Assembly: GCA_000004985.1 (NCBI GenBank)
Contig: GG738864.1
DNA length: 64,000 bases
From: Naegleria gruberi
Taxonomy: Eukaryota
Strand: one strand, 5' to 3'
The position numbers and the translations under genes were made by a program. Below, in pieces: positions 13,777 through 56,508 of the stretch. How positions within the stretch are numbered: the stretch's first letter is position 1; each line of letters starts with the position of its first letter. The notes under the pieces are model-generated. The model saw only the letters and a program-made list of their open reading frames with translations, had not been told where the DNA came from and made no database searches.

Positions 13777-16700
13777 ATGAAAGCATGTTTTTTCGTTCTA
13801 CTCTTGCTCTGCATCTTTCTGTTCAGCCTTGCAAGTCAAATTGACTCACAAAGCCTTCAATATAATATCAGCACGGTTGCAGGTGGTGGTTCTATTGTGG
13901 GTGATGGTTTATTAGCTAATGAGGCTATAACAAGCTACCCGTGTCAATTGGCAATTAGTTCGATTAGTGGAGATTTGTTTTTTGGAGAGGTGGTATCCAA
14001 TAGGATTCGTAAAATTACATCCTCAACTGGTGTGATATCTACTATTGCTGGAACTGGAACTGGTGCATATGGTGGAGATGGCTCCATGGCTACTGCTGCT
14101 CAATTGTTTTATCCTTATGGTGTTGCTCTAAGTTTGGGTGGTGAAATTTATATAGCAGATTCGAATAATAATAGAATTCGTAAAATAGCTACAAATGGTA
14201 TTATTACAACAATAGCAGGAACTGGAACACGTGGATATGATGGAGATGGTGCTTTGGCCACAAGTGCCAAGTTGAATTTTCCTTCATCCATAGCAATTAG
14301 TGCAACCAATGAAATTTATTTCACAGACCAATTGCAATCATAGGATTCGAAAAATAGCAACTAATGGTAATATCTCAACAATTGCAGGAACTGGAACTGG
14401 CAGCTATGGTGGTGACAATGCAATTGCAACAGGTGCACAACTTTATGCACCTGCATGTATTGCAATAGATTCTAATGGTGAATTTTACATTTCCGATTCA
14501 ATGAACCATCGTATTCGAAAAATAGCTACTAATGGTATTATTACAACAATAGCAGGAACTGGAACACATGGATATGATGGAGATGGTGCTTTGGCAATTA
14601 ATGCACAATTATACAGCCCCACGGGGGTTGTTGTCAACTCAAATGGTGATGTTTATATTGCTGACTCAGGTAATAACAGAATTCGAAAAATCTCAAAAGG
14701 ATACATCTCAACAGTAGCAGGAAATGGAATAGCTGGATATAGTGGAGATGGTGGACTATCAACAAGTGCTCAATTAGCCACTCCCCAATCAGTTGCTATT
14801 AATTTAAATGGCGAGATTATAATTGCAGATTCTAATAATAATAGAATTCGTAAAATAGCAACTAATGGAAAAATTTCAACAATTGCTGGAACATCATCAT
14901 TTGGAAATAACATACCAGCTACTTCAGCATCCATCTCACCAGTTGGTGTTCCCACTCTCTACAATAATAAGATAATTTTCGCAGATGAATCTCAAATTAG
15001 ACAAGTAGACCTTGCAACTAATATCATTTCATTAATATCTGGAACTGATTATTTGGCAAGTCCTACAGCAGCTATGTATTTCAACAATGAATTATATATT
15101 CTCTATTCAAAACTCAATTTAGATAAGCCAAAGATTAATATTGTTTCAAGAGTTGTTGGTTCTGAGGGATATAATGGCGATGATATTGCAGCCACTAGTG
15201 CACTGTTGAATTATGCTCGCTCAATTGCTGTCAATTCAAATGGTGATGTTTATATTGCTGACACTTATAATAACAGAATTCGTAAGGTCTCATTTTCAAC
15301 TGGAATCATTTCAACAGTAGCAGGAACTGGAATTGCTGGACAAAATGGTGATGGTAATTTAGCTACAAGTGCACAACTAAATTTTCCTTCAGGAGTTGCT
15401 GTGAGTTCAAATGGTGATATTTATATTGCTGACACTGAAAATCATAGAATTCGTAAGATAGAAACTAATGGATACATTGCAACAGTTGCAGGATCTGGAG
15501 CATCTGGATATAGTGGAGATGGTGGGCTGCTAACTAGTGCTAAATTCCAACAACCTCAAGGAGTGGCTGTGAGTTCAAATGGTGAGATTTATATTGCTGA
15601 CACTGAAAACCATGTGGTTCGTAAAATTTCAACTTCGAATGTACTTTCTACAATTGCTGGAACTGGTTCTTATGGATACAATGGTGACGGTGGATTGGCA
15701 ATTACTGCAAAATTATTCTCTCCCATAGGAGTTGCAATAAGTTCGAGTGGTGAAGTTTTTATTGCTGATAATAACAATCACAGAATACGTAAAATTGCAA
15801 AAGATGGCTATATTTCAACAATTGTTGGCACTGGTTTGAATGGGTATGATGGAGATGGCGATTTGGCTACGAATGCTAAATTGGGTAATCCTCAAGGTGT
15901 GACTCTAAGTCCAACTGGTGAATTGTTTATTGCTGACCAAAACAATCATAGAATTCGTAAAGTAGCAAGTAATGGATATATTTCAACTGTTGCTGGTAAT
16001 GGTAACTTTGGATTTAGTGGAGATGGTGATTTGGCAACAAATGCTGAATTGAATAGTCCTTCAGGAATAGCATTCAGTTCCATTGGTACCATGTATATTG
16101 CTGATCGTTTAAATAGAGTAATTCGAAGAGTAATCTCTGGTAATATATCCACCATTGCTGGAGGTGTTGGTGATGGAGGACCAGCTACTGGAGGATACAT
16201 TCAAGCACAATCATTTGACATTTCTTCAACTGGTGAGATTTATATTGCTGACACTGAAAATCATAGAATTCGTAAAGTTTCAACATTGGGTAAAATTTCA
16301 ACTATTGCAGGAACTGGTGCAATGGGATACAGTGGTGATGGTGGATTGGCAATTACTGCAAAATTATCCTCTCCCGTAGGAGTTGCAGTTAGCTCAACTG
16401 GTGAAGTTTTTATTGCAGACCGAGACAACCATAGAATTCGTAAAGTAACACTTTCTGGTATCATTACAACCATTGCAGGAAATGGAACTAGTGGTTTTAA
16501 TAGTGATGGAATTGAAGCAAAATTTGCTCAATTGAATAGCCCTTCCTCAGTCACAATTTCAGGTGGTGAAATCTATATTGCTGACACAAACAATCATAGA
16601 ATTCGTCAAATATCCAATACTGGTATTATTAAAACAATTGCTGGAAATGGATTTGGTGGATATATTGGTGATGGTGTATTGCCACCTAATGCTCAATTGA

Positions 16701-19700
16701 ATAGTCCTTCAGGAGTTGCAATTTCTTCCACTGCTGAAATTTACATTGCAGAAAATAAGAGAATTAGAAAACTTACAGCGTTCTGTACAGAGAATGGTGT
16801 GTTGATTGATGGAAAGTGTGTATTTCAATGTTTTGGATATACGAATAGTAATTCCTCACTTGTTTGTTCTGGAAAGGGCAACTGTATTGGAAATGATAAG
16901 TGCAACTGTTCATGGCCATACTCTGGTTCCAAATGTGATGAGTTTTATTGCAATGGAGTGTTGAATACTAACAAAACATTTGTGTGTTCATCTCATGGTA
17001 CTTGCTCATCTCCAAACAATTGTTCTTGTGTCGATGGTTTTTATGGAAATATTTGTGAATTCTTTTATTGTAATGGCGTACAACAAAATAGTTTAAATGT
17101 ATGCTCAGGTCATGGACTCTGCTCTTCTTTGAATAATTGCACCTGTCAACAAGATTATTCAGGCATTGATTGTGAAAATTTCCATTGTTATGGACTGTCT
17201 AGAGTTGATCCTAAAGTTTGCTCATCTCATGGAATTTGCTCTTCCATAAATAATTGCTCATGTGCAACTGGATATGGTGGATCTAAATGCAACGAATATT
17301 CATGTTATGATGTGAATTCTACGAATAAGACAGTTTGTTCTGGAAGAGGAACTTGTTCTTCTCCCAATAATTGTACATGCGATCCAGGATACTATGGATC
17401 AAATTGTGAATTGTACGATTGTTATGGAATATCCAAAAACAATTCGAATGTCTGCTCAGGACATGGTACTTGCATTGCTATCAATAATTGTACATGTACA
17501 GATGGTTACTATGATACCAAATGTGATTCATTCAATTGTGCAGGAGAGAAATTCACTGGTCAATCACTGTGTCAGAATAATGGTACTTGTTCTAATCCTG
17601 GTAATTGTGATTGTCCTTATCAGTTTGGAGGTGCCAGATGTGAATATTACAAATGTTATACCTATACTTCTAATGAAGCAAAAGTATGTGGCGGGCATGG
17701 TACTTGTTTAAATTACAATAATTGTTCTTGCTCTGGCAAGTGGATTGGTGACGATTGTACACAGACTACTTGTTATGGTAAAAGTTCAAACTCTAGCTCA
17801 GTATGTGGTGGAAGAGGTAATTGCACAGACTTTAATCAATGCACATGTTATGATGGGTATAGAGGTGTCGAATGTCAACACATTGTCTGTTTTGATAAGA
17901 TTGAAAACGATACATCAGTTTGTTCAGGAAATGGCAAATGTCTAACATCAAACAATTGTACATGTCAAATTGGTTATGTTGGAAATGAATGTCAATATCA
18001 CGAAATTTATTTGAATACCTCATCTGCCATAATATTTTCATTCCAGGAAAGTTTAATGAAATTGTTGCCAAATGAGAGTGGAATATTTTCATGTTCTGAA
18101 ATTTTCACTGATTCTGAAATTGCCAAATTTGGAGAAAGTACTTCGATTTCTTGCCAATGGAGAAGAAATTCACTCCTAATTCATCTTGGATTTGATTATT
18201 CTATTCAACAATACTCAATTATTCAATCAAAATTCAACTTTTCAATGAGAGTTTCTAGCTTGTCCTCAGTTTCTAATAGTGATGCTCCATCTCCAACTTG
18301 TTCTTTCGGATATGTATTGAATGAAGCTTCTCCATTATTGGATGTAGTGATACGTTTGAATTGTGATGAGAATTTGCATGGTTTTAAAAAGAGTAGAACC
18401 AGTTGGATGTGTAGTCAATGTACAGGAGCAATTTCATCAATTTTAAGTAACTATTCGAATAGATCCAGTGTTTATATTCCAATTTCGTATATGAACGCTT
18501 TGAATCCTGTTCAAGGATACAAGACAATTAATTTGCAAGCTTCTTATTCATCATCTGTTTCTTCCACCATTTCCACTAGTAAGGAAGTAAAGGTTCAAAC
18601 CTATACGAAATCTTTACCTCCAAGTTATTACTGGCTAAGTGATAATTATGATGGAAAAACCTATTCATGTGTTGGCCATAATTGTATCATTGAAACTTCA
18701 TTGAATAGTTTAAACTCCTCAATTTCTTATTCATTCTCTGGTTTATTTAGTTTATTGAACACTGATTTATATTCGAAACAAATGGTGAGATTGATAAATG
18801 AATTTTCAGGAGGAATTGTCGACAGTGAATTCAGTTCTAACATGCAAGTTTTTGGAGTTCAACTCAAGACCTATGTTTACTTACCGTATAGTATTGATTC
18901 ATTCAAATATTCCACATTTACAAATTTGGATTATGTCATGACAGGCGTCAATAGAACCTACTCAATCAATGCAGATAACTTAATAACTATAGGTTTGACT
19001 ATTGATGATCCATACATTTCAAAATACACATTAAGTGATTACATGGTATTCTCCTGGAAATGTTTCCAAGTTTCTCCTTCTAATAGGTCTTTAATTTTGA
19101 CCGATAATTTGTGTTCCTCAATAACTGACAATGCCAAATCAAATATTGAATTGGATATCAGCAAAATGTCTTTGAAAGAAGGTTCATATTTAATATCTGC
19201 TTCAATTTCATCGACTAAATACTTTGTTACAACAGTTTACAATTATGAAGGATGGATTGACTTGTTGGGAATTTCACAGGATTCTCCTCAGATAACTACA
19301 GATTATGTACCTGCTATTACTCCTTCTCATCACAATATTTATTTAAGAAATGTGGTGAAATCTTCAACAAGTGTTTCATTCTATTGGAAACTCAAAAGTG
19401 GTGAATTGAATATTGACGAAACTGTTGAAGATTTCCTTCAAAGAAATACAGTTTCTAAATCTATCTTGGGTAACAATGTTGAAATTATCTTGAATATTGA
19501 CAATGATTATCTCATCCAAGGAGAATATTATGAATTTGAATTGTCAACCAAGAATTCTAACGGTGTTTCAAATATTTCCATTTCAACAAGAATGGATTTC
19601 ACTCCTCGATTGTCATGTAATGTGGAAAATGTGAAGAATGAAGCTAACTTGACCAGTTTTGAATCTTTAATATCTATTACATGTGTAAAATTGCCATACG

Positions 19701-22134
19701 AAAGTATATCAAGTTTCGTCATGGAATTCCATTCACAAAACGAAAGATTAGGAGTCATTTCGAATACTCCAAAGAAGGCTCTTATTACCAGAGTTCCTTA
19801 TGCAATGGATGGAACAGTTACCTTAATCGTGAAACTTCAAAATTTATATGGATCTATTGGAATTTATAGAACTACTATCAGCGCTCAATTACCAAATGCT
19901 TTGACAAGTGACAACTCTATTTCTTCAAGATTTACATATGTATCCAAACAATTCCAAATTCTCAAAAATGCTCAACCAGCCAAAATTGAAGTTTCCAACG
20001 AAGTCAACACCTTACTTTCTTTATTAATCCAAAACGAAACTCTTTCTAAAATTTCAGAGAAAATTTCAAAGGAATTGAAATCTGATCAATTAGTTTCCTT
20101 TAATACAATGCTCAAAGAAATGCTAACCCTCACCAAGAGTCTACAAGACATTACTTACAAAGTTGATGAAAGATTAATTCAATTAATTCTGCCAATTGTC
20201 AACAAAATTTCCACAATTCTCAAATTAACTCTTGACACATCGTCATTATCCAATTTTGCTTCAGAATTGGAAATTTGGTTGGACTGGATTTATTCAGGAA
20301 TGAATAAGGCACTCAATTACTATCCAACTTTCATTTACAAGGAATTATTAGATGAATTTCATTTACAAGAAATTGTTTCGTTACAAAATATACTTTCGAA
20401 TATATACCAAAATAATTTGGATCAACAATTTAAATACCACAAGTACAATTTACAATATATCAAGCTTACAGGAAGTAATAGTGATAATTCAAGCTTTGTG
20501 GAAGATGTTGAGTTTTCTGATTTATTGAATGACAAGTCAATTTCACTTTCTGTTTCTAATTTTAAAGTTGATATGAAATTACCAAGTGATTTTACCAATC
20601 AAATTTCATTGAAATCAAAATCAAAACTATACTATTCCATTACCTCATTCAGTGATAATCAAACTGGTTCAAAACTTTTACAAAACAAACCAATAATTGA
20701 CCTATCTCTGTACGATACATCTTACAATGCAATATCAGTTGACAACATTAATCCACCAATAGTTTTCAAGTTCCAAGGATTGTTTTCCACTAACAAGACT
20801 AATATTAACACAACTTGTGTCTATTACAATACCATACTAGGAAAATGGTCAACCAATGGATTGCAAACAATTACAAGCGTTACCAAACGAACTGAAGAGT
20901 ACATGTACTTTGATATGGAATGTCATTCAAGTCACTTGTCTGTATTCTCAGTTCAAGAGGTTGATTACAACACCCCAATTATACCAGCCATTTCATCTAA
21001 CAAAGCTTCAAACCAACAAGAAAATCTCACCATTATTTTAGCTACTGTTTTACCTGTTAGCTTTTTAATCCTTATTTTCATTATTATCCTCTTTGTGTTT
21101 ATCATTTTACTATTCAGATTTAAGCAAAAGAAAGCAAATGAATTTGCCATTGCAACCAAAACCAATCTTGAAATGGAAGGTTTCTCAAGCAGTGATTTCC
21201 CATCCTCAGAAGGAAGCATGTTTATTCATCCTCTTATGAGTATTTCCTCAAATGGAACAACTAGTGAAGCATTCAATCCATTGTCAAGATATTCTGATTT
21301 AGTAAGAATTGGCCAAGGAGCTTTTGGAAGTGTTTTTAAAGCATTTGATAGTAAGACGTCAACTGTTAAGGCGATTAAGGTAATTAAATATTCATCCATG
21401 GAGGAGTTGAATAATTTCATGAAAGAAGGAACGCAGTTGATGAATGTGACACATCCTTATATTTTGAGAGTGAATGATTTCTTTGTGAGTAAGGATCAAT
21501 TGCTATGTATAGATATGGATTTTTATGAATTAGGAGATTTGGTCAAATTGACCAATGTTGAATTTGATTGCTCGGAGAAGTTAATCAAACAAATTATTTA
21601 TCAAATGTGTCAAGCTTTGGATTATATTCACTGCAATATGAAAATCATTCACAGAGATATCAAACCATCTAATGTTTTTGTAAAGAGTATGGAAAATGAC
21701 GATATTCACATTATTGTTGCCGATTTCGGATTGGCTAAATCAAATATTGGTGGATCAATGAATAATTCCTATGCAGGTACACCTATATTTATGGTAAGTT
21801 TTCAAATATTTCTTTCGATTCGAATAATTTTTAGTCTCCTGAACTTGGCTTGGGTGGAAAATATTATTACAATACTGATATTTACAGTTTAGGTGTTACT
21901 GTATATCAAATAATGACCAAAGACACCTCTACTTCAATCAGTCAATTGTATCTTGGAAAGGAACAAAATGAAGTTACAACGCTATTGAGAAAAAAGCTTA
22001 AAGATGGTGGACATTATTCTGAACGAGTTGTGGAATTGGTTTTACAAATGTTAACAAAGGATAATTTAACTAGGCCACAAGCTCAAGATATTTTGGAAAA
22101 TTCCTATTTTGATGATTTGAGAATGAAACGATAA
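13777..22134 (+). CDS. Giant receptor Ser/Thr kinase with NHL beta-propeller repeats, EGF-like repeats, a TM segment and a kinase domain (single-base frame disruption near 14332; one 41-nt intron)
   Basis: The signal peptide is MKACFFVLLLLCIFLFSLA. About 28 NHL-type repeats (...YIADSxNNRIRKIxxNG.ISTIAGTG...) run through ORFs 13777..14343 and 14300..21892, which differ by one base. About 15 EGF-like modules (C..G.C...N.C.C..GY.G..C) follow, then about 1000 aa of unknown ectodomain, a TM helix (IILATVLPVSFLILIFIIILFVFIILLF) and a kinase (GQGAFGSV, AIK, HRDIKPSN, DFG, GTPIFM). A GTAAGT...TTTTAG intron at 21794..21834 leads to exon 21835..22134 (SPELGLGGKYYYNTDIYSLGV). The stop is TAA. Confidence 0.7.
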
Positions 22135-41340: not shown

Positions 41341-42219
41341 ATGAACAAAAGCCAACCACAAGAATTTATTCATCAAAATAGCAACAAAGAATTTAAAGAT
41401 GATAATGATGAAAAAGTAAAAACAATTAAAACTCAAGTCGGAGTGGATAATATTGCAATTTCAAAGAGTTCGGAATATTCTCTTTTTGATTGGTTTAATT
41501 ATTGGTTTAGGGGAATTACCTTGTCTGTTTCAACATTTGGAGCAGTGAGTAATCCTCATAAATATATTGAAAAACAAGGAGATTTATTACCTGATAGGCT
41601 GTCTCATGATTTCTATTCGAGAATTTATCGATTTAATAAGGAGGAGTATGTGGATGCTATTGTAAATGCAAAAGATGATGTACATGCCCCACTCACTCAC
41701 AACTATGAAGATTGCATGCAAGCAAGGAGAGGAATGACAATATTTGGAGTCGTCTCGGGTGGAATTTTTGGATCTGCCTTTGCCTATGCAAAGAATTTTG
41801 GTACAATTACCAATAGAAAGAGATATTTGCCTTATACATTGAGTGGAGTGTTGATTGGATTTACAATGTTTAGATTTGTGATTGCTCCAAGAACTGAGAG
41901 TTGTTTTGAGCAAATTATAAATCAAGCTCTTTCAGAGAGAATTATTACAAAGGGATACAATAACATGATGGAATACTATAAACAAAACGAGAAACCAAAG
42001 ATGGTGAATTGGAGTGACTATGAACTCGATAAGGAGCAACAGGACTATCTCAATACCAAAATGAGAGAACACATGCTCAATGCAATGAAGAAGGCTGGAT
42101 GTAATAAGGAAAGTATTGAATCTTTCACTGATGGTAATGAACTGGTGTGGAAGCAACATTTGGATGTCAATTTTAAAAGAAAATATCCATCTCATAGAAA
42201 GTATTTCGAGTTTTTATAA
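41341..42219 (+). CDS. Hypothetical protein (possible membrane-associated, glycine-zipper segment)
   Basis: The ATG at 41341 has an A-rich Kozak context. The upstream ATG at 41275 lies inside a repetitive AT-rich promoter-like stretch. GMTIFGVVSGGIFGSAFAYAKNFG is a hydrophobic/glycine-zipper segment. The stop is TAA at 42219. Confidence 0.45.
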   Translation: MNKSQPQEFIHQNSNKEFKDDNDEKVKTIKTQVGVDNIAISKSSEYSLFDWFNYWFRGITLSVSTFGAVSNPHKYIEKQGDLLPDRLSHDFYSRIYRFNKEEYVDAIVNAKDDVHAPLTHNYEDCMQARRGMTIFGVVSGGIFGSAFAYAKNFGTITNRKRYLPYTLSGVLIGFTMFRFVIAPRTESCFEQIINQALSERIITKGYNNMMEYYKQNEKPKMVNWSDYELDKEQQDYLNTKMREHMLNAMKKAGCNKESIESFTDGNELVWKQHLDVNFKRKYPSHRKYFEFL

Positions 42220-45143: not shown

Positions 45144-46013
45144 TTAATCGAGGGATTGAGATGCAAAACGTCCAGTATAAACAGCTCTACCTTCAAGCTT
45201 CATAAAGACGAATTGACACAAGTGAGTGCCTGGATACAATGCAAGAGAATTAGGACTAATGGAGTGTCAAAATGCAAAATTCATTTCAATAAACTTACCT
45301 AGCATTGAAAATTTCCAAGACTTGCTTGTTGTTAATACCTGGTTGCATGAAACCAGCAGTGATGTGAATAGCAAGACCCATACGAGCGAATCTAGATCTA
45401 CCTTCCAACAAACCACAGAAACTTGGTGAAATACTGACAGTTTCTTCAGTGATGCCCAAAACAGTTTGACCTGGTTTGAGAACAAAGCATTCACCCTTTG
45501 GAACCTTAACAACCTTTGAGTATTGCTTATAGTCAACGTCATCAGTAATTGGAATAACATCTTCGGAAACTGTCATTTCTCTGAATTCATCTCCAAGAGT
45601 TCTGTATAAGCATTATAAAATTGCATCATATTCAATATTGCATTTTGTATCATCATTTTGTGGTCAATAACATTTTCATTGCATTTTGATGAAATTTTTC
45701 ATGAATTTAAAAACACAAAGATTTTAAAAAGACACCTACAAGTCATAAGAAGCAGGACCCAAGTGAGACAAGTTGAATGGAGTGATGGTAATTTGTCTAT
45801 AGAGTTGCATCATTAAAAAGGTTCATATCAAACGTTACATTGATCATCACAATGACACACAACAATACATTCAAACATGGTCATCATTCCGAGTAATAAT
45901 ATCAAACAAAAGAGTAGCAGATTTATTGTTGGCACCCTGATGTGTGTCCAACCTTCTTCAACTTACTTGGCTTGAATAGCTTTCAAAATCGAGTCGCGGG
46001 AGAGAACAGACAT
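45144..46013 (-). CDS. dCTP deaminase-like (dUTPase-fold, bacterial/archaeal dcd type), 4 exons
   Basis: Exons are 45967..46013, 45740..45796, 45299..45601 and 45144..45255. The introns are 170, 138 and 43 nt (donors GTAAGT, GTAGGT, GTAAGT). The spliced protein is MSVLSRDSILKAIQAKQITITPFNLSHLGPASYDLTLGDEFR...GRSRFARMGLAIHITAGFMQPG...LEIFNASPNSLALYPGTHLCQFVFMKL... These motifs match the dcd N-terminus (M.L.DRDI), the substrate loop (PASYDLRLG) and the GRSSLARLG / TAGFIDPG signatures. Confidence 0.7.
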
Positions 46014-46549
46014 TTTTTTATATTAATTTATATATTAAATAATACAAATGATATTATTAGAGTATCTTTGTCTTGATTACTTTTTTGGGTGCATCAAGAA
46101 TTTTCTGCTCCATGCAACTTTCCAGGCGGCGGAATATATGTGAGGATTTATTTGACTGTGTATTACTTCATGAAATTAATATTAAACACTGTTTGGTACT
46201 ACAGATTTTACACTTGGAAGATAACGGGTAAAATTTCATACTGCTTTCATTCATCTGGGTAATGTCAATCAGCTTATTAAGGTTCTAATGGTTTCGTATT
46301 GTTACACCATCACTTGGCTGGGATAAATGGAAAAAAAAAGAGTCAACTAGTTCAATATTTGCTTTCAATTAGTTGGTTGAGCATAGTGGTATTTTAACCA
46401 TGAACCGTTCTCATTACTTTTCTAAAGTTTAAAAAATAGCAAAATGAAACTTATCAATTTTCTAAGTCTTCTTGATAGCTGTTGGTGCACTGTCTTCTAA
46501 CTTGGTTTCGTCACAAGAAGTTAGGGATGTTTCTTTGAAAGTATGTTAA

Positions 46550-47877
46550 AAATCTCTAGATTTAGTCAATTACAAGCTTTTAAGATACACTGGCTTCTCT
46601 ATCGACCTAATTCAATTTCTTGTTTCCAAAATGACAAACGTGTCCATTGAATTTTATGAAGCTCCAGATGGTACCTTTGGTAGTCCAACTGCTGCGAATG
46701 TGAATGGAAACTGGTCAGGAACCATCGGTGAAATAATATCTGGTCGTGCTGATGTCATGATTGGCCCTTTAACAATTACTCAAAGTAGACATCAAGTCAT
46801 GGATTTTACAACAAGTTTCTTTGATGTTGGACTTTCTATTCTAACTCTTAAACAAGGAGAGGAATCTAATTTATTTTCATTCTTATTACCATTCTCGTGG
46901 GAGGTTTGGATTTTGATTTTCGTGAGTGCATTAATAGTTGCCTTGCTAACATGGGTTTTTGACCATGTTTCGCCTTATGGACATTCGAAACAATCAGACG
47001 AATCAAAGAATGAATTTGATTTTAGTGGTTCGTTAATCAATGTATGACAATATCTGGTCAAGACGGAAATCCAGGTAAAAGCTGGTCAACCAGAATCATG
47101 TTGTTAGGTTATTTCCTCTTTGTCATGATTATTCTCTCAACTTATACAGCTAATTTGGCAGCCGTCCTGACAACAAAGGTTCAATCCACAAGAGTTACTG
47201 GACTATCTGATATCAGAACCTACGGATTCAAGTTTGGTGTGGCTAAAAACTCTGCTCCTGCTTCTTACATTTCCAGCAGTGAAGACATGGCAGATATCAA
47301 AAAGAATATGGTTGTATTCGATTCCCTCGATGATTGTTTACAAGCTCTGAGAGATGGAAAGGTGGATGCTTTGATTTGGGCAAGTGCCATTCTCGAATAT
47401 ATGGCCAATCAACCACCATGTGATACTTTGGTCGTTGGTGATTTGTTTAGTCCTGGAAATTATGGTTTACCTTTTGCTAAGGGAAATTGGATGATTGGTC
47501 ATTTCACTTCGGTGTTGTTGTCGATGAGAGAAAGTGGACTTGTTGAGAAACTCAAAAGGAAGTGGTGGATTGATAAGGGAAGCTGTTCATTGGTTGAATT
47601 GACACAAACAGCAACAGGTGTAAAGATTCAAGACTTGGGAGGTATCTTTTTGATTTTGGCAGGTTTTGTAGTTGTTGGTGGTGTGGTTTTGATATTCGAA
47701 TTAGTATATAGGGCTGTATATGACAAGACAAAACACAAAACTAAACATCTGAAATATCTGAATAGATTCTTGGGAGGTGAAAAGCACCTAGTTCAACGTG
47801 AGAAAGATGTACAGGAATTGAACACCACGAATATTGCAACTCCAACACTCGAAAAAGATGGGAATATGAACCAGTAA
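46550..47877 (+). CDS. Ionotropic glutamate receptor-like channel (S1-M1-pore-M2-S2-M3, no amino-terminal domain); 5' exon unresolved; single-base frame disruption near 47024-47026
   Basis: Features are S1 (YTGFSIDLIQFL...NGNWSGTIGEIISGRADVMIGPLTITQSR), M1 (FLLPFSWEVWILIFVSALIV), a pore loop with the SYTANLAAV(LTT) signature, S2 (KVDALIWASAILEY...GLPFAKGN) and M3. ORF 46631..47047 and ORF 47044..47877 are offset by one nucleotide across the M1-pore linker (NEFDFS|WFVNQCMTISGQDGNP). The frame is open upstream to 46550, and a candidate first exon with ATG lies at 46444. Confidence 0.6.
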
Positions 47878-48055
47878 ATATATTTTAAAAGGGATATGTA
47901 GATATTGATATTTCGTAAATTAAGGTGTTTGGTGGCTTTCTTTCCAAAACTCTACAAGGCAAAACTAGTTAAATTTTCAGCCTCCAAAGACATTGAAATT
48001 GATAATGGGAATTAAGGCAGAATATATTTAATTACCTCGGGTTGAGATTGTCAAT

Positions 48056-48173
48056 GGCTACGGCCATATCACGATGAATGCACCTCATCCCGTCCGATTT
48101 GAGAAGTTAAGCATCGTCGAGCCACATCAGTACTGAGGTTGGAGACAACTTGGGAACCTGTGGTGCTGTAGTC
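48056..48173 (+). rRNA. 5S ribosomal RNA
   Basis: GGCTACGGCCATATCACGATGAATGCACCTCATCCCGTCCGATTTGAGAAGTTAAGCATCGTCGAGCCACATCAGTACTGAGGTTGGAGACAACTTGGGAACCTGTGGTGCTGTAGTC matches the eukaryotic 5S consensus, and its terminal helix pairs GGCTAC with GTAGTC. A T6 run follows. The 5' boundary is accurate to about 3 nt. Confidence 0.85.
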
Positions 48174-48179
48174 TTTTTT
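48174..48179 (+). terminator. RNA polymerase III T-run terminator of the 5S gene
   Basis: TTTTTT lies immediately after the 5S 3' end. Confidence 0.6.
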
Positions 48180-48321
48180 ATTTAACATTTTTTTATTCTG
48201 CCTTAATAAACTGTATTGTCTAGACTTTCTTTGAAACTGAATTTACGTGAATTTATTCGGCTGGAACTTGATTTTTACCACCTTATTAATAATACTGAAT
48301 TTAAATTTCCATAAGTCCATG

Positions 48322-49278
48322 TTACACCATCAAACAGCCTTTCTTTTTTTTATGTAGAGATAATACCTCTTCCAGCACTTTTTTTGGATCATCAATACGT
48401 ACTCGAAACTTTCTAACACATTCTTCCACTAATTTATCAATATTTTCATTTGTTTTTGCACTTGTTTTCAAAATTGTACAATTAGTCAATTCAAATTCTT
48501 TTACAACTTCTTGTACCATTTCCAAATTAATTTCATACCTATCAGGGAGATCACATTTGTTCATGGCAATCATACAGGGAGCATTCTTTCCCTTCCTATC
48601 TACAAATTTACTTATCAATATTTTCAATTCTTCCAAACTTTTCTGGTCTATCATTGAGCAAACAAGAATCAAAACATCGAACATGCAATTTTTCCAATAA
48701 TAATCAGTTTCTTCCTCACTACACGTATCCAAAAAGTTTACAGTTTCCTCTTCATCATCCACAGAGATTGTTCGTTTGTACGAATCATAACCGGTAGGGT
48801 CATATTCTAGGAAGAATTGCCCATATATAAATCTTGTTATGATTGAGGATTTTCCACTGCCTCCCCTTCCAATCACTAACAGCTCAATAATTGGTGTATC
48901 AAATTTTTTTCTAAATATTTTCCCTTGTTTTTCTCTTGTTCGAATCAAATGAATAAAGTAACCTAAACTTTTAACAACTCCAATCTTGGCGAATTTATCA
49001 AAAACATGCAAAGATTCCATTTCTTTTGATTCTACTGATATCGAATACTGATCAAATATCACACCAACAAAAATCCAACAAAATTCATCAATGTATTTTG
49101 CAATAAATTTCGAATAATTTGGATGAATCAATCGGAAACTTAATACATTCGGAATGGAGTTTTTTAATTGATGGAAATATTGTTCATGCAATTTTCTTTC
49201 AGCTAACTCATAAAACGGAGACAAGTATGAAATAATTTCTGTATGAATCTCTTGGGGAAGTTGAAGAAATTTGGACAT
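48322..49278 (-). CDS. F-box-like N-terminus fused to a Ras-family GTPase with a polybasic-CAAX tail
   Basis: ATG at 49278. The N-terminus has LQLPQEIHTEIISYLSP (F-box-like). The GTPase core has G1 GRGGSGKSS, G4 MNKCD and G5 TSAK. The C-terminus HKKKKGCLMV is a polybasic stretch plus CAAX before TAA. The gene is intronless. Confidence 0.65.
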   Translation of the reverse strand: MSKFLQLPQEIHTEIISYLSPFYELAERKLHEQYFHQLKNSIPNVLSFRLIHPNYSKFIAKYIDEFCWIFVGVIFDQYSISVESKEMESLHVFDKFAKIGVVKSLGYFIHLIRTREKQGKIFRKKFDTPIIELLVIGRGGSGKSSIITRFIYGQFFLEYDPTGYDSYKRTISVDDEEETVNFLDTCSEEETDYYWKNCMFDVLILVCSMIDQKSLEELKILISKFVDRKGKNAPCMIAMNKCDLPDRYEINLEMVQEVVKEFELTNCTILKTSAKTNENIDKLVEECVRKFRVRIDDPKKVLEEVLSLHKKKKGCLMV

Positions 49279-49393
49279 TTTTTAATGATAAGAAACCTCC
49301 TAAGTTGCTCCTTCAAACAACAACTCACTTGCCAAGGAATAAACATGGATTTAATTAGAAACATTGGGAGTAATATTTTGATGAGATCAAGAA

Positions 49394-49466
49394 GCCGACA
49401 TAGCTCAGTTGGGAGAGCGTAAGACTGAAGATCTTAAGGTCCCTGGTTCGATCCCTGGTGTCGGCA
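49394..49466 (+). tRNA. tRNA-Phe (anticodon GAA)
   Basis: The sequence is GCCGACATAGCTCAGTTGGGAGAGCGTAAGACTGAAGATCTTAAGGTCCCTGGTTCGATCCCTGGTGTCGGCA. It has a 7-bp acceptor stem (GCCGACA/TGTCGGC), a D-loop AGCTCAGTTGGGAGAGC, an anticodon loop ACTGAAGAT, a T-arm GGTTCGATCC and discriminator A. There is no intron, and it is followed by a T5 run. Confidence 0.9.
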
Positions 49467-49468
49467 AA

Positions 49469-49473
49469 TTTTT
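49469..49473 (+). terminator. Pol III T-run downstream of tRNA-Phe
   Basis: TTTTT lies 3 nt after the tRNA 3' end. Confidence 0.5.
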
Positions 49474-49864
49474 ATTCCGATAATAACTAATAAGGTGGTA
49501 AGAAAGAAGGGGTACAGAGCAAGACCTAGAAATAGAAGAAATTCTTCATCTAACTTCAAAGAAAGTTTATTAAGGTGGAATAAGAAGGAAAAAACGACAA
49601 CACAGGTTCCAAGTTGTCTCTAACCTCAGTACTGATTGGAAAATTCCATTCCTTTTAAACAATTTAAAACTTGGAAATCGTCTAATACATTCAAATTCCA
49701 CTGTTTCAATAATTCAATCATAAATTCCTTATCATTTCTTAGAGAAGGTGGTTATTTTGAAATGAAAATATTTCAAACCCATTTCCTTATCATTTCCAAT
49801 TTGGAAATGAATAAATTGTAGCAAATCTTAAAGCACATTGAATTATTGTAATTGTTGGATTATT

Positions 49865-50881
49865 TCAAATAACACCAATATCAAGTGATGTTAATTGTTT
49901 CATTTCACTTATGAATTTGGATCCTTCTACACCAATTTGATTGTAAGTAATGTCAAGTGATGTTAATTGTTTCATTTCACTTATGAATTTGGCTCCTTCT
50001 ACACCAATTTGATTGCCAGTAATATTAAGTGTTAATTGTTTCATTTCACTTATAAATTTGGATCCTTCTACACCAATTTGATTGTAACCAATATTAAGTG
50101 ATGTTAATTGTTTCATTTCACTTATATATTTGGATCCCTCTACACCAATCCCATTATAATATATATCAAGTGATGTTAATTGTTTCATTTCACTTATGTA
50201 TTTGGCTCCTTCTACACCAATTTGATTGTAACCAATATTAAGTGATGTTAATTGTTTCATTTCACTTATATATTTGGTTCCCTCTACACCAATTCCATTA
50301 TAATATATATTAAGTGATGTTAACTGTTTCATTTCACTTATGTATTTGGATCCTTCTACACCAATTTGATTGTAAGTAATGTCAAGTGATGTTAATTGTT
50401 TCATTTCACTTATGTATTTGGCTCCTTCTACACCAATTTGATTATCAGAAATATAAAGTGATGTTAATTGTTTCATTTCACTTATGAATTTAACTTTATC
50501 TGGAGAGTTACGCAACCTATAACAAAACTTAACATTTACAATACTATTCTTGAATTGGCTTTTCATAAACAATTCAATTCTATTTTCTGTAAATTGTTTT
50601 TTAAATTGAATAACAAGTCTTGAACGTTCCCGGATCACATTAAAGAATTGTTTTGAAATTAAAGAACAATTATTCAAAATAAACCACGAATCATCAATCA
50701 TGGAAATTATGTCAAAACAAACATCATCTGAAAATATATCTTGTTGGAGTTTCACAACTTTTTTTGCTTTCTCTTTCATCGAATAATTATCATTAATCAA
50801 TAGCTCCTCCGAAATTAATTGATTTGCAAAATCTTGGCTGATTCGTTTGCTCATTTTTTTATTACTAATAGTTTTCTTCAT
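49865..50881 (-). CDS. F-box-like / LRR (RI-type) protein with about 11 near-identical 24-aa repeats
   Basis: ATG at 50881. The N-terminus (FDIISMIDDSWFILNNCSLISKQFFNVI) is F-box-like. It is followed by tandem LTSL(N/D)I.YNQIGVEGAKYISEMKQ repeats. The stop is TGA at 49865. Confidence 0.7.
   Translation of the reverse strand: MKKTISNKKMSKRISQDFANQLISEELLINDNYSMKEKAKKVVKLQQDIFSDDVCFDIISMIDDSWFILNNCSLISKQFFNVIRERSRLVIQFKKQFTENRIELFMKSQFKNSIVNVKFCYRLRNSPDKVKFISEMKQLTSLYISDNQIGVEGAKYISEMKQLTSLDITYNQIGVEGSKYISEMKQLTSLNIYYNGIGVEGTKYISEMKQLTSLNIGYNQIGVEGAKYISEMKQLTSLDIYYNGIGVEGSKYISEMKQLTSLNIGYNQIGVEGSKFISEMKQLTLNITGNQIGVEGAKFISEMKQLTSLDITYNQIGVEGSKFISEMKQLTSLDIGVI
49871..50495. repeat. Tandem array of about 8.5 copies of a 72-bp unit (one 69-bp copy) inside the LRR gene
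   Basis: The unit tcaagtgatgttaattgtttcatttcacttatgaatttggatccttctacaccaatttgattgtaagtaatg recurs with more than 90 percent identity, and the differences cluster at a few positions. It encodes the 24-aa LRR repeat. Confidence 0.8.
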
Positions 50882-51715
50882 ATATCAATTATGCCAGCCA
50901 TTTCATTGAACTAATGTCTATTCGATTGGTCAATCAAGAAGAACAACCAACACAAACGAATGTAAGAGAAAAGCTAATGCAGTTACTCAACCAAGAAAAA
51001 GAAGGAATGCTCATTTCCCTATGGCATCGTTCTGCAAATTGACGATGGCGTATTTACTCTTTGAGCTCAAGTTCACTTTAAAATATAAATACTTGTACAG
51101 TAAGTTAATATTGACAAGTTGCTAGATAACCAATCTGAACCTTCGAATAAACCATTGCCATTTATTTCACTACATGGTTGGATGTATCAATCTTGTTTGA
51201 TCGAATTTAAGTGCAATATCTTTGCAAGGTCTGTAACTTTGGCGGCCCTTGGTAAATCTTGCTTATTAGCCCAAATTAAAAATTTGGCATTTGATGGATC
51301 TTCCATAACTTTACAGGATGAGGTGCATTCATCGTGATATGACTGTAGCCCTCACTTAATCGAATTCTTAATATAAAAACAATAATATATCAAATCCTAA
51401 GAAAATAAACTTAATTAAATTATGAAAATTACAATGTATTAATTATTTGGTCTTTTATCAAATATTGGAACTTTTCAATTTGTGGTCAGTCTAACCTTGA
51501 AGTTCGTTCATTCTGTTCCTTTTTCTTTATTATTCCAAAGAGATGGTTAATGAAAGACCAAATGAATAATATCCAAAACCCATGGCTACTCCTTCTTTGG
51601 AAACTCGTTAATCATATTTCTTTCCAAAATTATTAATTGACTGAGCAAGTACAAGTTTTGAAATCTATAAATTGTGGAAAGTAAAAAATTAAAAACAGAA
51701 TACAAAGAAAACAAA

Positions 51716-52114
51716 ATGAAAAGATTTATTTCAATTCTATTAATTGCATTGACGTTAACAGTTCTTGCTCTTTCATTCACATCAGGAGTTAGTGCCACCA
51801 CTGAAGAACAAGCATCAACTCTCTCCTTGTATATTAGAAAGTATGGAAATAAGAAGAGAAATCTCAAGAAATACAGATTAAAGAAGAGAAAGAACAACAG
51901 AAAGCTCAACAAGTACATTGATACCTATGGAAGAAAGAGAAGAGGATCAAAGAGATTAGGAAAGAGGAGAATTATCAGAAAGAAGGTTGATGTTTATGGA
52001 AAGAAGAGAAGATTGAATAAGAAGAGAAGAATTGATACCTATAGAAAGAAGAATAGAAAGAATAAAAGAGGAGGAAAGAGAAATAAGAAGGTTGATATCT
52101 ATAAGCGTAAATAG
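51716..52114 (+). CDS. Secreted, extremely basic (about 50 percent K/R) repeat protein
   Basis: The track start at 51674 is a GTG, and the first ATG at 51716 follows an A-rich leader. The signal peptide is MKRFISILLIALTLTVLALSFTSGVSA. The mature part is about 105 aa of K/R-rich sequence with 4-5 repeats of (I/V)D(T/V/I)YG(R/K)KRR, ending KRK before TAA. Confidence 0.55.
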   Translation: MKRFISILLIALTLTVLALSFTSGVSATTEEQASTLSLYIRKYGNKKRNLKKYRLKKRKNNRKLNKYIDTYGRKRRGSKRLGKRRIIRKKVDVYGKKRRLNKKRRIDTYRKKNRKNKRGGKRNKKVDIYKRK

Positions 52115-52486
52115 AATTTCCTTAAATTTTGTAATTATGAGTAATAAACGTGTGATTCCATTCAATCTTGTTTAACATGAGGCCTTAGAGTCTGAAAACT
52201 TGAATAAATGTTTGGAAGTTTGAATCATGTATAAAAATTCCTTTGGAATGTTTGCACTCCTCAAGCATGGAATAACAAAGAATGTATGTCCATGCACTCT
52301 TAGTCACTCCCGACGGTCTGTCTTAGGGCGTACAAATTTTTCCTCACTAACTGCGTACTATCTCTCTATTTTTATTTAAAAGGCCATTAATCGAAAACCT
52401 CAAATGAAACCAATAACAAAAAAAACTAATCAATTGATTAACTGTTAATAATAGTCATCTATTTAGCTCAAAATATTGAAAAAATC

Positions 52487-53410
52487 ATGTCCGCCTCATC
52501 AAATTCTAATAATTATTCATCTGTTGTAATTGCAGGAGCAAGTGGTAATCTTGGTAACCAAATTGTTAAAGCTTTTCTCAATCAACCAAATGTTAGAACT
52601 CATATTCTTGTTAGAAATGAAAGCAAACACAAGGTTGAAGAATTGATCAAGTTGGGAGCTCACATTATTGAGGGAGATGTAACAACCTCAAGTGTTGAAG
52701 AGTTGGCTCAATCATTCAAAGGAATTGAAGTTATTGTTAGTGCACTTTCTGGTGATCATTCAGTTGTTTTTGATGGTCAACTGAAATTATTGAATGCTGC
52801 CAAGTTGAGTGGGGTTAAAAAGTTTGTTCCTTCAAGTTACGGTTTCAATTTCCAAGATTATTTGCAATTAGGTGATAGTTTACTCATTGATCCAAAGAAG
52901 AAATTGATTAATGATTTGCAATCTCAAAACCAAGTTGACTATCTATTGATTCACAATGGTTTATTCTATAGTTATGCTTTCTTTCCAGGTTTCCTATTCC
53001 AAAAGGAAAATGACACTATTAAATACTATGGAGATTTGAATGTCAAAATCCAATTGACTGACACTTTAGATATTGCCAAGTATGTTGTCGAAGCATCTTT
53101 GAATCCACAATTAAAGAACAAATCCATCAACGTTGCTGGTGATGAAAAGACCTTGGAAGAATTAGCTCACTTGAGTTTCCCTCAAACTCAACTCAAATTT
53201 GAAAAGTTGGGATCCGCCCAAGATTTGAAGAATCTCATCCAGAAAGAAATTCAACAAGGATTGAAACCAGAACAAATTGGTCCAATTATTTATCAACAAT
53301 TACAATGGATTGCAATTTCAGGAGTTGCACATCCACCAAAAACTGATAACGATCTCTTCAATGTTAAACCACTTTCATTGAATGATTATGTAAAAAATCA
53401 AAAACAATAA
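52487..53410 (+). CDS. NmrA-like / isoflavone-reductase-like NAD(P)-binding protein
   Basis: ATG at 52487. The Rossmann motif VVIAGASGNLGNQIVKAFL is present, and the length and motif order (SALSGDH...KKFVPSSYGFN) are typical of the NmrA family. The gene is intronless. Confidence 0.7.
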   Translation: MSASSNSNNYSSVVIAGASGNLGNQIVKAFLNQPNVRTHILVRNESKHKVEELIKLGAHIIEGDVTTSSVEELAQSFKGIEVIVSALSGDHSVVFDGQLKLLNAAKLSGVKKFVPSSYGFNFQDYLQLGDSLLIDPKKKLINDLQSQNQVDYLLIHNGLFYSYAFFPGFLFQKENDTIKYYGDLNVKIQLTDTLDIAKYVVEASLNPQLKNKSINVAGDEKTLEELAHLSFPQTQLKFEKLGSAQDLKNLIQKEIQQGLKPEQIGPIIYQQLQWIAISGVAHPPKTDNDLFNVKPLSLNDYVKNQKQ

Positions 53411-53745
53411 ACCCTATCCTGTACTATAGTAACGTTAATATTAAATCACCTACAAATTCTCAATTTTTAACAAGCTTCTTCATTGCGCTTATCATTGATG
53501 GCAAAGAAAAACGAATAATTAATCAATTTAAAAAAAACAAACAACAACGCGTCGCAGCGAAAAGCGAGGAAAACTCTGTGTTTTTTAATAATAGGACCAC
53601 ACAACAACAGCAAGTTACTTGCCGACTACAATAGTACACGTGGTGGATCATCAGAAAGAGAGGATTATTTTAGATCGGCTCGTTTTTTATATTGTGTTAT
53701 ATTCTTCTGTATTATATATTTAGTTGTAAATAGTTTCGGAAGGAA

Positions 53746-56493
53746 ATGAACATTCTCTTCTTGGTTGATACATCTTCATCGATGAATCAACTCACAACCA
53801 ATGGGATGAAATTGATTGATATTTCCAAGCATTGTATTGAACATTTCATCAAGAATAGACAAAAACATTTAATGCACCAACAAAAAAGGGATAATTATCT
53901 ATTGGTAACATCTGGACAAAAGGTAGTTGTTGGATGGAAAGATGCCACGGAATCATCATGTTTCCTTCAAAGATTGAAATCCCTAAAGGCTAATGATTTG
54001 ACTGAAATTGGGCCATCTTTGAAAAAGTCTTTTGATGTTTTAAATCAACATCGGCTTCAAAAAGGAGTGGACCATTATGGCATGGGAAGACATGCAAGTG
54101 CTGTAGAAAATTCTGCTATTGTTTTAATTACGGATGGTGAAAGATTAACTCAATCTGTTAATCCATTCGACCAAAGAGTATTTGTAAATCAATTTTTGGA
54201 TGCCAACAAATTGACACTCCCTAATCCACATTCATATTCTACAAAATTGACAGAGGAACCATTTAGATGGGATCAAAGAGTGTTCAGTATTATTTTACAA
54301 TTTCAAGCTGTTGGTACTTCTTTGACAACTGTTTCTCCATCAGCTTCACTTAATCCCTCATTGGCCAATCAACAACAACAACAAGCCAATTTGACAAATC
54401 AAACACCAACTATTACAGATAATCCAATAGCTCCAATAAGTGAAGTTACAGGTGGCTTATCGAGAACTTTCTCAAATATGGTTTCTCTCCTAAAATTTAT
54501 GGATGATTTATCTGGTGTTCAGCTTGCTAGACCTTCAGTGGTTGTAAATTTTGACATTGTAAAAACATTGAATAATAAGCAATCCAGTGTTTTCCCTCCA
54601 ACAAATAATGAGGGTCTAGGAAAAACTGTACTACAATATATTACTCAACCTCAGCAAAGAGAATCCTTTTGGCCAATACCAGAGAACTATCTTCCAGGTG
54701 CTAACATGACAGAACTGCCAACAAGAAGAGCTCAACCATCTATTTCTTTACTATATACTGAAAAGAATGATATTCTTTTGACAATGGCTCTTAACAAATT
54801 CCCAATTTATGATATTTTTGAAATCAGTACTCAAAGTCCAATTGGAAAATATGTTATTCAACAGTCAAGCAGAGAAGGATGCTATAAAGCCTTTGTAACA
54901 AACAGTACTCCGAGTAATTATGGATTTGGAGAAAGTTTTGGATTTTTAAAGAAGATTGCTGTCCAAAATAGTACTGGAGAAGTTGAAAATAAGATTTATT
55001 TCTACCTTCTGCCATATAACTTTTTGAGATTATTTTATTTGATGAATGAGTTTGTTGTAACCCACAAGTCTCAACCCTCAGCTGCTTGGATCCAACAGTT
55101 CCATAAATTTGTACAGAATCTCCCTGCCTACTATATCAAACCACTTAAATCAGCGATGAACAAATGGTTTGGAGCATTTGCCCATTTCCCTGATGTACCT
55201 TACGAACTACCAAGCTCATTACAACTCTATTACAAGCAACTAGTTGATGAGGAGAAACGATTTAACAAAGATATGGAATTAGAGGAAAGTGGATCATCTA
55301 CCAATGTAAATTTACCAAATGACTCACTTCCAAAAAATGACGACCAAATGCAAGATCCTCCATCCTTCCCAATAATCAGTTTCACAAATCCATATGTTGC
55401 CAAAAAGGAAACCAATAATTTAATTAGAAATCCATTCGATATCGACAAAACATCACTCCTGAAACAAATGAAAATGATGAGCCAGTACCTTTTCCATTCA
55501 GTTGTTGTAGAAGTTCCAGAAGATGCTGACCATTCTAAAATACCTTTGGATCAACATTTAAGAGATTTATCAAAAGAAGAAATTAAGAAACACTCCACTC
55601 CAATATCTCAAATGGGTAACTTTGATAAGGTATTATTGTCTAAGGAGGTTTTGAGAGACCCATTCGAGCCTCAAAAGCAGAAACAAGTCAACTTTGGAAG
55701 CCCATATCAGAAAAAGAAAAAGAGATTGAGATCAATTCATATGAACGCCCCATTACTTCTCGATAAATTAGTTGATGAATCTGAGATGGATCTGAAACAA
55801 AAGGAGGAGGAAGAATCATCAGAATTTGATGCAAAGGTGGAATCAATGCTCTTATTAGAACCAAACATTGCCGATTCAAATGTATCATCAATACCAGTTG
55901 AACCTAGTTCAGCTCCACTTGAAACACACGAACCTTTTGAAACAGAGTTAGAAAAGATTGAACCAGTTCCACCAATTATTGAAGATGCTGTTCCAATTAT
56001 TGTAGATGATGTAATACCTGACCAATATGCAGCCCTAACACAAAGTAGTACTAAGCCACAATCCCCTACCTCAAATCTTCCTGGTAAAGCGGCCAATTTT
56101 AGACCTCCATCAACCAATAGAAAATCTAAAGCTAATCCTCAAAAAGAACATGCTCAATTATTTGTTGATAGTTTCCAAAACAACCATGAATGTTTACAAT
56201 TTGTTTCTCAACTTCCTGACCCTTTACTTTCAGCTGTTGTGACGAGAGTAATGCAACAAGAATTAACAGATGGCAAAAAGAAACAACAACTAGATGCCAT
56301 TAGATCAAAGATAAGAAAAAGAAAACGTAAAGACATGGAAGAATTGGAAGAAGCAAAAGATATTACTTCTGATATTAATAAGGTTCATTTCCCAACTAGA
56401 GAAAGTAGGACAGTCTTTGTTAGAGAAATAATCGCTATAGCCGCTTTATTTAAAAAAACCAAACTAGCTCAATTATTGACAGAAGAGCTCTAA
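53746..56493 (+). CDS. Integrator complex subunit 6 (INTS6/DICE1)-like protein
   Basis: The N-terminal vWA domain has the INTS6-type signature (ILFLVDTSSSMNQ...YLLVTSGQKVVVGWKD...TEIGPSLKKSFDVLNQHRLQKGVDHYGMGRHA...VLITDGERLT...LTEEPFRWDQRVFSIIL). It is followed by a long low-complexity middle and a conserved C-terminal helix region. The single 915-aa exon starts at ATG 53746. Confidence 0.7.
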   Translation: MNILFLVDTSSSMNQLTTNGMKLIDISKHCIEHFIKNRQKHLMHQQKRDNYLLVTSGQKVVVGWKDATESSCFLQRLKSLKANDLTEIGPSLKKSFDVLNQHRLQKGVDHYGMGRHASAVENSAIVLITDGERLTQSVNPFDQRVFVNQFLDANKLTLPNPHSYSTKLTEEPFRWDQRVFSIILQFQAVGTSLTTVSPSASLNPSLANQQQQQANLTNQTPTITDNPIAPISEVTGGLSRTFSNMVSLLKFMDDLSGVQLARPSVVVNFDIVKTLNNKQSSVFPPTNNEGLGKTVLQYITQPQQRESFWPIPENYLPGANMTELPTRRAQPSISLLYTEKNDILLTMALNKFPIYDIFEISTQSPIGKYVIQQSSREGCYKAFVTNSTPSNYGFGESFGFLKKIAVQNSTGEVENKIYFYLLPYNFLRLFYLMNEFVVTHKSQPSAAWIQQFHKFVQNLPAYYIKPLKSAMNKWFGAFAHFPDVPYELPSSLQLYYKQLVDEEKRFNKDMELEESGSSTNVNLPNDSLPKNDDQMQDPPSFPIISFTNPYVAKKETNNLIRNPFDIDKTSLLKQMKMMSQYLFHSVVVEVPEDADHSKIPLDQHLRDLSKEEIKKHSTPISQMGNFDKVLLSKEVLRDPFEPQKQKQVNFGSPYQKKKKRLRSIHMNAPLLLDKLVDESEMDLKQKEEEESSEFDAKVESMLLLEPNIADSNVSSIPVEPSSAPLETHEPFETELEKIEPVPPIIEDAVPIIVDDVIPDQYAALTQSSTKPQSPTSNLPGKAANFRPPSTNRKSKANPQKEHAQLFVDSFQNNHECLQFVSQLPDPLLSAVVTRVMQQELTDGKKKQQLDAIRSKIRKRKRKDMEELEEAKDITSDINKVHFPTRESRTVFVREIIAIAALFKKTKLAQLLTEEL

Positions 56494-56508
56494 TTATAAT
56501 GTACAGCT

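Follow-up and report, generated by a model that had tools for sequence, protein, structure and literature searches.

The question raised by this locus is whether an intron-bearing gene of bacterial affinity, read as encoding a dCTP deaminase (dcd), is a true resident of the nuclear genome of Naegleria gruberi, to which family its product belongs, how the gene was acquired and which reaction its product would catalyse. The gene lies in a stretch of 64,000 nucleotides of N. gruberi DNA, which is referred to here as the window. Our analysis assigns the locus, with a probability of about 0.9, as the nuclear gene dcd1, encoding a dCTP deaminase of the trimeric dUTPase superfamily that belongs to an early-acquired eukaryotic Dcd1 clade. 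The annotation of the gene, its bacterial affinity, its introns and its ancient acquisition are already known, from the genome annotation and from the study of Liang, Mower and Chia (Mol Biol Evol 2023, PMC10733785).

Gene structure and residence in the nuclear genome

dcd1 occupies positions 46013-45144 on the minus strand and comprises four exons separated by three GT-AG introns, which are arranged as follows.

Exon 1, 45967..46013, minus strand: ATG at 46013; 47 nt coding, codons 1-15 plus 2 nt of codon 16; a GTAAGT donor comes next
Intron 1, 45797..45966, minus strand: 170 nt, GTAAGT...TAG, phase 2, within codon 16
Exon 2, 45740..45796, minus strand: residues 16-35, with the GPASYDL motif inside
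Intron 2, 45602..45739, minus strand: 138 nt, GTAGGT...CAG, phase 2, within codon 35
Exon 3, 45299..45601, minus strand: residues 35-136, with the catalytic core Ser104, Arg108, His114, Phe119, Gln121 and Glu131
Intron 3, 45256..45298, minus strand: 43 nt, GTAAGT...TAG, phase 2, within codon 136
Exon 4, 45144..45255, minus strand: residues 136-172 and the TAA stop at 45146-45144

The spliced open reading frame is 519 nt long including the stop codon and encodes a protein of 172 aa, whose N-terminus (MSVLSRDSILK) aligns from residue 1 onward with bacterial and eukaryotic homologues. Each of the introns would bring in-frame stops if it were left unspliced; splicing gives back a single open reading frame, and it is only with splicing that a full-length alignment of the product to its homologues is obtained. 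An earlier reading of the locus, made from the sequence alone, had proposed three GT-AG introns of these sizes and a 172-aa product, and when the model was rebuilt from the sequence the sizes and coordinates proved exact, as did the product. An exact-sequence look-up found the translation to be identical, residue for residue, to XP_002678007.1 (EFC45263.1, UniProt D2VD40), which is annotated as "dCTP deaminase [Naegleria gruberi]" on a scaffold of 441,990 bp. The four-exon model is the existing N. gruberi annotation.

Comparison with Naegleria lovaniensis supports the same structure. The dcd gene of that species also has three introns, each matching its N. gruberi counterpart in position and phase, with lengths of 176, 110 and 53 nt. 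Between the two species the exons show 74-81% nucleotide identity, while the introns and flanks show 39-47%. Third codon positions account for 86 of the 123 exonic differences, and the codons that differ comprise 70 synonymous and 27 non-synonymous changes. The contrast between exons and introns, together with the bias towards third positions, indicates a spliced gene under purifying selection.

The sequence-only reading had also held that the gene is integrated nuclear DNA of host-like composition and not contamination. The dcd coding sequence has a GC content of 0.40 and a GC3 of 0.33, close to the values of 0.34±0.03 and 0.27±0.04 for the 30 long open reading frames of the window, and its gene context agrees with residence in the nucleus. 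An enoyl-CoA hydratase gene (44843-43876) lies directly downstream of dcd, as it does in N. lovaniensis, and in Willaertia magna dcd is flanked by counterparts of the INTS6-like gene (53734-56490), the TPT transporter gene (43443-42253) and the gene next to the latter (41446-42216). The other long open reading frames of the window with Pfam matches encode eukaryotic-type kinases, Ras GTPases, LRR proteins, an iGluR-like channel and a UBX protein. The microsynteny with both N. lovaniensis and Willaertia, alongside these eukaryotic neighbours, leads us to regard dcd as resident nuclear DNA, as had been claimed.

The opposite case would be that the locus stems from bacterial contamination or from a recent insertion that has not been processed, or that it is a pseudogene in decay, with the "introns" being artefacts of a forced gene model. 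The slight excess of GC in the coding sequence over that of its neighbours is a weak hint in this direction and the only one. Everything else speaks against it: the product is identical to a protein annotated on a 442-kb scaffold, eukaryotic genes stand on both flanks, the position and introns are orthologous in N. lovaniensis with synteny that reaches as far as Willaertia, the substitution bias reflects purifying selection, and the stops within the introns mean that splicing alone restores the alignment to homologues. We therefore consider contamination or pseudogenisation to be ruled out by the identity to the annotated protein, the synteny, the common introns and the pattern of substitution, and we give it a negligible chance.

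The region upstream of dcd has been rearranged between species (positions 4256-5326 of the N. lovaniensis locus, L001, against 46014-56500 of the window). In N. lovaniensis a DDE_3 transposase gene lies upstream of dcd, and it is about 2.9 kb to the orthologue of the window gene at 59676-56512. The counterpart interval in N. gruberi is about 10.5 kb long and holds an iGluR-like gene, a 5S rRNA gene, a Ras gene, a tRNA-Phe gene, an LRR gene, an NmrA-like gene and INTS6, which in Willaertia adjoins dcd directly. The iGluR-like, or ligand-gated channel, gene (46631-47874, plus strand; Pfam Lig_chan, 3.8e-17) is directly upstream of dcd on the opposite strand, and its first open reading frame has typical ligand-binding and transmembrane sequence; in N. 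lovaniensis and in Willaertia the 6 kb upstream of dcd contain no such gene. The 5S rRNA gene is complete (48056-48174, plus strand; Rfam RF00001, 105 bits) and is situated about 2 kb upstream of dcd with the iGluR-like and Ras-family genes on either side, and the tRNA-Phe(GAA) gene (49394-49466, plus strand) is called in agreement by ARAGORN and Rfam. Elsewhere in the window an uninterrupted open reading frame of 2,532 aa (14294-21889, plus strand), taken together with 13726-14340, contains many NHL and teneurin-like NHL repeats together with EGF repeats of the teneurin-like type, and has a protein kinase domain at its C-terminus; from these domains its product looks like a giant receptor-kinase-like protein.

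Protein family and distribution of homologues

The spliced product matches Pfam PF22769 (DCD, dCTP deaminase-like) over residues 3-155 (3.2e-43, 147.9 bits, cut-off 27) and passes the NCBIfam equivalog model TIGR02274 (dCTP_deam) with 125 bits against a cut-off of 92.8. The models for dUTPases all score below their cut-offs, these being PF00692 with 16.4 bits (cut-off 22), TIGR00576 with 14.2 (102.55) and NF002598 with 28.1 (130). The call of dcd rather than dUTPase that had been made from the sequence is borne out by these scores.

Among proteins of solved structure, the closest by sequence is the DCD:DUT of Bacillus halodurans (4xjc, 6e-20), followed by those of Mycobacterium tuberculosis (Mtb, 2qlp), Escherichia coli (1xs1) and Methanocaldococcus jannaschii (1ogh). 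An AlphaFold (AF2) model of the monomer, built on an alignment of 42 sequences, has a mean pLDDT of 92.2, and Foldseek comparison of this model with 2qlp, 2j4h, 1xs1 and 4xjc gave TM-scores of 0.80-0.85, with 2qlp as the top match. Across the 42 homologues Arg103, Ser104, Arg108, His114 and Glu131 are invariant, and in alignments Ser104, Arg108, His114 and Glu131 correspond to Ser111, Arg115, His121 and Glu138 of E. coli Dcd. The E. coli Dcd sequence used for this numbering has 193 aa, and this length and its S111, R115, H121, R126, D128 and E138 match the numbering in the PDB and the literature. The two proteins have in common the fold (TM about 0.83) and the four catalytic residues Ser, Arg, His and Glu, while identity is only about 29% and the Naegleria protein, at 172 aa, has a shorter C-terminus.

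The product could alternatively be a dUTPase of the archaeal, Dcd-like type, with no deaminase activity. It shares a superfamily with the dUTPases, it has the weak matches to NF002598 and PF00692 given above (28 and 16 bits), and Thermococcus dUTPase structures appear at lower rank among both the sequence and the Foldseek matches. The dUTPase models, however, fall far short of their cut-offs while TIGR02274 exceeds its own, no variation is seen at the deaminase residues Ser104, Arg108 and Glu131, and the aspartate required for hydrolysis is missing. A dUTPase in place of a dCTP deaminase is thus ruled out by the curated HMM cut-offs, and we regard it as very improbable.

To see how widely this dCTP deaminase is distributed, homologues were sought in a collection of 5.8 billion proteins. 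The best were those of N. lovaniensis (84% identity) and Willaertia magna (76%), and Naegleria fowleri has a close orthologue that falls in the 90%-identity cluster of the N. lovaniensis protein. Homologues with 54-61% identity came from dictyostelids, Acrasis kona, Paratrimastix, Andalucia, Arcella, Barthelona and the eukaryote isolates TZLM1-RC, TZLM3-RCL and GEM-RC1, and bacterial homologues resembling Eremiobacterota/Xenobia showed 54-56%. The eukaryotic Dcd1 clade spans Discoba, Amoebozoa, Metamonada, fungi and others. In longer homologues (for example P0123, 383 aa), which could have been domain fusions, no extra Pfam domain was found.

The closest functional reference within the eukaryotic clade is the Dcd1 of Dictyostelium discoideum (Dcd1Dicty), the only member whose function has been tested. 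The Naegleria protein is 56-61% identical to dictyostelid Dcd1 and of equal length, and shares with the clade the RSRFAR and F-M-(Q/N)-P-G-I-x-N-x-Q motifs. A bacterial group of LEGRSRFAR-type Dcd proteins, found in picocyanobacteria, Eremiobacterota/Xenobia, Myxococcota, Nitrospirota and others, is also similar over the full length of about 170 aa (44-56% identity) and has the active-site motifs of the Naegleria protein, including Gln or Asn in place of the superfamily Asp, but its genes are intronless and stand in a prokaryotic context, with no phylum clearly closest. Of the species genomes of GTDB at least 591 encode a protein of this subtype, with 44-53% identity; they are spread over many phyla, picocyanobacteria, Myxococcota, Nitrospirota, Chloroflexota and Planctomycetota among them, and no single bacterial donor stands out there.

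Shared introns and the origin of the Dcd1 clade

The position of intron 1, in phase 2 after nucleotide 47, is common to N. gruberi, N. lovaniensis, Willaertia magna, Acrasis kona and the dictyostelid Tieghemostelium lacteum, and in Willaertia it is the only intron in dcd. It is the i1 of Liang et al., which they reported as common to Amoebozoa, fungi and Naegleria (PMC10733785), and is therefore old and widely shared. The two further introns of Naegleria were seen in none of the other loci examined. Intron 2 occurs in N. gruberi and N. lovaniensis, and there is no intron at its site in Willaertia, Acrasis, Tieghemostelium or Paratrimastix. Intron 3, which is in phase 2, lies 4 nt upstream of a phase-0 intron found after residue 137 in Acrasis (Heterolobosea), Tieghemostelium (Amoebozoa) and Paratrimastix (Metamonada), at L003 3448/3487, L004 3486/3561 and L005 3634/4000 respectively against 45298-45256 in N. 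gruberi. The offset could reflect intron sliding or an independent gain.

Because the Dcd1 clade extends across supergroups with intron positions in common, the gene is no peculiarity of Naegleria and any transfer must be older than the Heterolobosea. Liang et al. defined the eukaryotic "Dcd1" clade from Amoebozoa, Obazoa, Metamonada and Discoba, and named among its members N. fowleri, N. lovaniensis and the N. gruberi protein itself (XP002678007, listed in a supplementary table as a credible eukaryotic homologue). In their maximum likelihood (ML) tree the clade is monophyletic with a bootstrap support (BS) of 92% and is nested within bacteria/prokaryotes with a BS of 100%, and they favoured an ancient transfer of Dcd1 from a prokaryote to a eukaryote followed by some transfers between eukaryotes. 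An approximately unbiased (AU) test in the same study did not reject an alphaproteobacterial grouping, and with it a mitochondrial origin (P = 0.073; PMC10733785). The sequence-only reading had suggested dcd as a candidate for a gene acquired horizontally long ago and since domesticated, and this is accordingly the published conclusion for this very protein, with the proviso that a mitochondrial (EGT) origin was not rejected there.

We also computed neighbour-joining (NJ) trees from 121 and then 53 sequences over about 170 columns, with 100 bootstrap replicates. The point tree separates the named eukaryotes from the named bacteria, groups the Heterolobosea and places the N. gruberi protein with the named eukaryotes. 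Bootstrap values were low for the monophyly of the eukaryotes (9-41 of 100) and for Heterolobosea (12), while Vahlkampfiidae reached 100. The NJ tree does not contradict the published analysis, nor does it extend it, and with some 170 columns, the NJ method and weak bootstrap values the scenario for the origin rests on the published ML tree and AU tests.

In the scenario that we infer, the Dcd1 clade would have been acquired once, from a bacterium or from the mitochondrial ancestor, very early in the history of eukaryotes. Intron 1 would already have been in place when the dcd copies of Discoba and Amoebozoa split from one another or were exchanged; introns 2 and 3 would be later gains of the Naegleria lineage. 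There is a substantial though minority chance that the origin was other than a dedicated early transfer from prokaryote to eukaryote, either by vertical descent from LECA or EGT with many losses, or by transfer of an intron-bearing gene between eukaryotes. The sharing of intron 1 by Heterolobosea and a dictyostelid, and of the phase-0 intron after residue 137 by members of three supergroups, would fit such histories, as would the AU result and the lack of a single donor when relatives of 44-53% identity are scattered over many phyla. Against them, in the published ML tree the eukaryotic clade falls within bacteria and not with alphaproteobacteria (PMC10733785), and the distribution of the gene among eukaryotes is patchy. 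We continue to favour the early acquisition from a prokaryote.

Predicted catalysis and the supply of thymidylate

By analogy with its relatives the Naegleria protein would form a homotrimer with active sites at the interfaces between subunits. dCTP would be deaminated hydrolytically and without zinc by Glu131 (Glu138 in E. coli) together with Ser104, Arg108 and His114. The dUTP so formed would pass to a separate dUTPase and the resulting dUMP would be methylated to dTMP, giving this AT-rich amoeba a route from dCTP to dTTP alongside, or instead of, dCMP deaminase. Deaminase activity is suggested by the Dictyostelium orthologue, Dcd1Dicty, which fully rescues an E. coli Δdcd strain (PMC10733785). 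This complementation does not separate an enzyme that forms dUTP from one that forms dUMP.

In the dUTPase superfamily an aspartate (Asp119 in Mtb Dcd:dut, Asp128 in E. coli Dcd) binds the 3'-OH and also coordinates the water molecule for attack on the alpha-phosphate; this Asp is said to be conserved throughout the superfamily, and the Mtb residue is called "indispensable for dUTP hydrolysis" (PMC3360063). In monofunctional Dcd of the E. coli type this Asp is neutralised by Arg126, while bifunctional enzymes have Phe or Trp at the position of the arginine (PMC3360063). In the dUTPase of Mtb the equivalent Asp to Asn change, D83N, brings the catalytic efficiency down to 0.0002 (PMC5519681).

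Alignments of the Naegleria protein with 2qlp, 4xjc and E. coli Dcd place Phe119 in the Arg126 column and Gln121, whose codon is in exon 3 at about 45345-45343, in the column of Asp128 and Mtb Asp119. The Arg126-Asp128 salt bridge of the monofunctional E. coli type is therefore missing from the Naegleria protein. All of the 42 aligned sequences have Phe at position 119. In the best 120 homologues the column of the hydrolytic Asp is filled by Q 86 times, by N 29 times and by H and A twice each. A set of 149 representatives at 50% identity splits cleanly into proteins with "RSRFAR ... F-[MI]-[QNH]-P-G-[IV]-x-N-x-Q" and those with the classical "[KR]SSLGR ... G-F-I-D-P-G-F", and the Gln/Asn variant thus characterises a large subfamily rather than the Naegleria locus. 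The dictyostelid Dcd1 examined, from D. purpureum, has Asn in the Asp column; taken with the complementation of Δdcd by the D. discoideum protein, this suggests that the Gln/Asn subtype is probably an active deaminase.

The presence of Gln121 in place of the hydrolytic Asp makes it most likely that the Naegleria enzyme is monofunctional, releasing dUTP and depending on a separate dUTPase; within the functional model we would put this at somewhat better than even odds. Monofunctionality would then come from loss of the Asp and not from a plug of the Arg126 type seen in E. coli. Phe119, an aromatic residue as in the bifunctional enzymes, points the other way.

If the enzyme were instead a bifunctional dCTP deaminase:dUTPase (dUMP-forming, EC 3.5.4.30), of the kind found in M. 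jannaschii, M. tuberculosis and B. halodurans, dUMP would be made directly with no release of dUTP. These bifunctional proteins (2qlp, 4xjc and 1ogh) include the best matches of the Naegleria protein among solved structures, both by sequence (4xjc) and by Foldseek (2qlp), they share with it an aromatic residue at the Arg126 position, and B. halodurans DCD:DUT is similarly short at 177 aa. They differ from it in the residue that matters for hydrolysis, since the Asp that coordinates water is theirs while Naegleria has Gln121 and its subfamily Q, N or H, and the equivalent Asp to Asn replacement nearly abolishes dUTPase activity (PMC5519681). We regard a bifunctional enzyme as unlikely and prefer the monofunctional, dUTP-forming one.

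The replacement of the Asp by Gln or Asn, with the monofunctionality that it suggests, goes beyond the study of Liang et al., in which it is not discussed (PMC10733785). Our searches found no published enzymology of the RSRFAR / F-M-(Q/N)-P-G subfamily, and no solved structure of it among the PDB matches. Tentatively, and at slightly less than even odds, this subfamily, comprising the eukaryotic Dcd1 and the proteins of picocyanobacteria, Myxococcota, Nitrospirota, Eremiobacterota and others, may represent a mechanistically distinct class of dCTP deaminases that is monofunctional through loss of the Asp and possibly altered in recognition of the sugar (3'-OH) or in regulation.

No dCMP deaminase was found among the long open reading frames scanned within the 64-kb window, and for Naegleria Liang et al. 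reported no more than a weak candidate (BLASTp 5e-11; PMC10733785).

For N. gruberi dcd these results are a confirmation and not a discovery, and the remaining interest of the gene lies in the uncharacterised Gln/Asn variant of its active site. Mammals are not known to have an enzyme with the dUTPase-fold architecture of Dcd, and for this reason Dcd could in theory be targeted selectively in the pathogenic N. fowleri. More generally, the route from dCTP through dUTP to dUMP, usually taught as bacterial, is present in free-living amoebae and other protists, where it is relevant to the supply of dTTP in AT-rich genomes, and dcd has been eukaryotic for long enough to have introns in common across supergroups.
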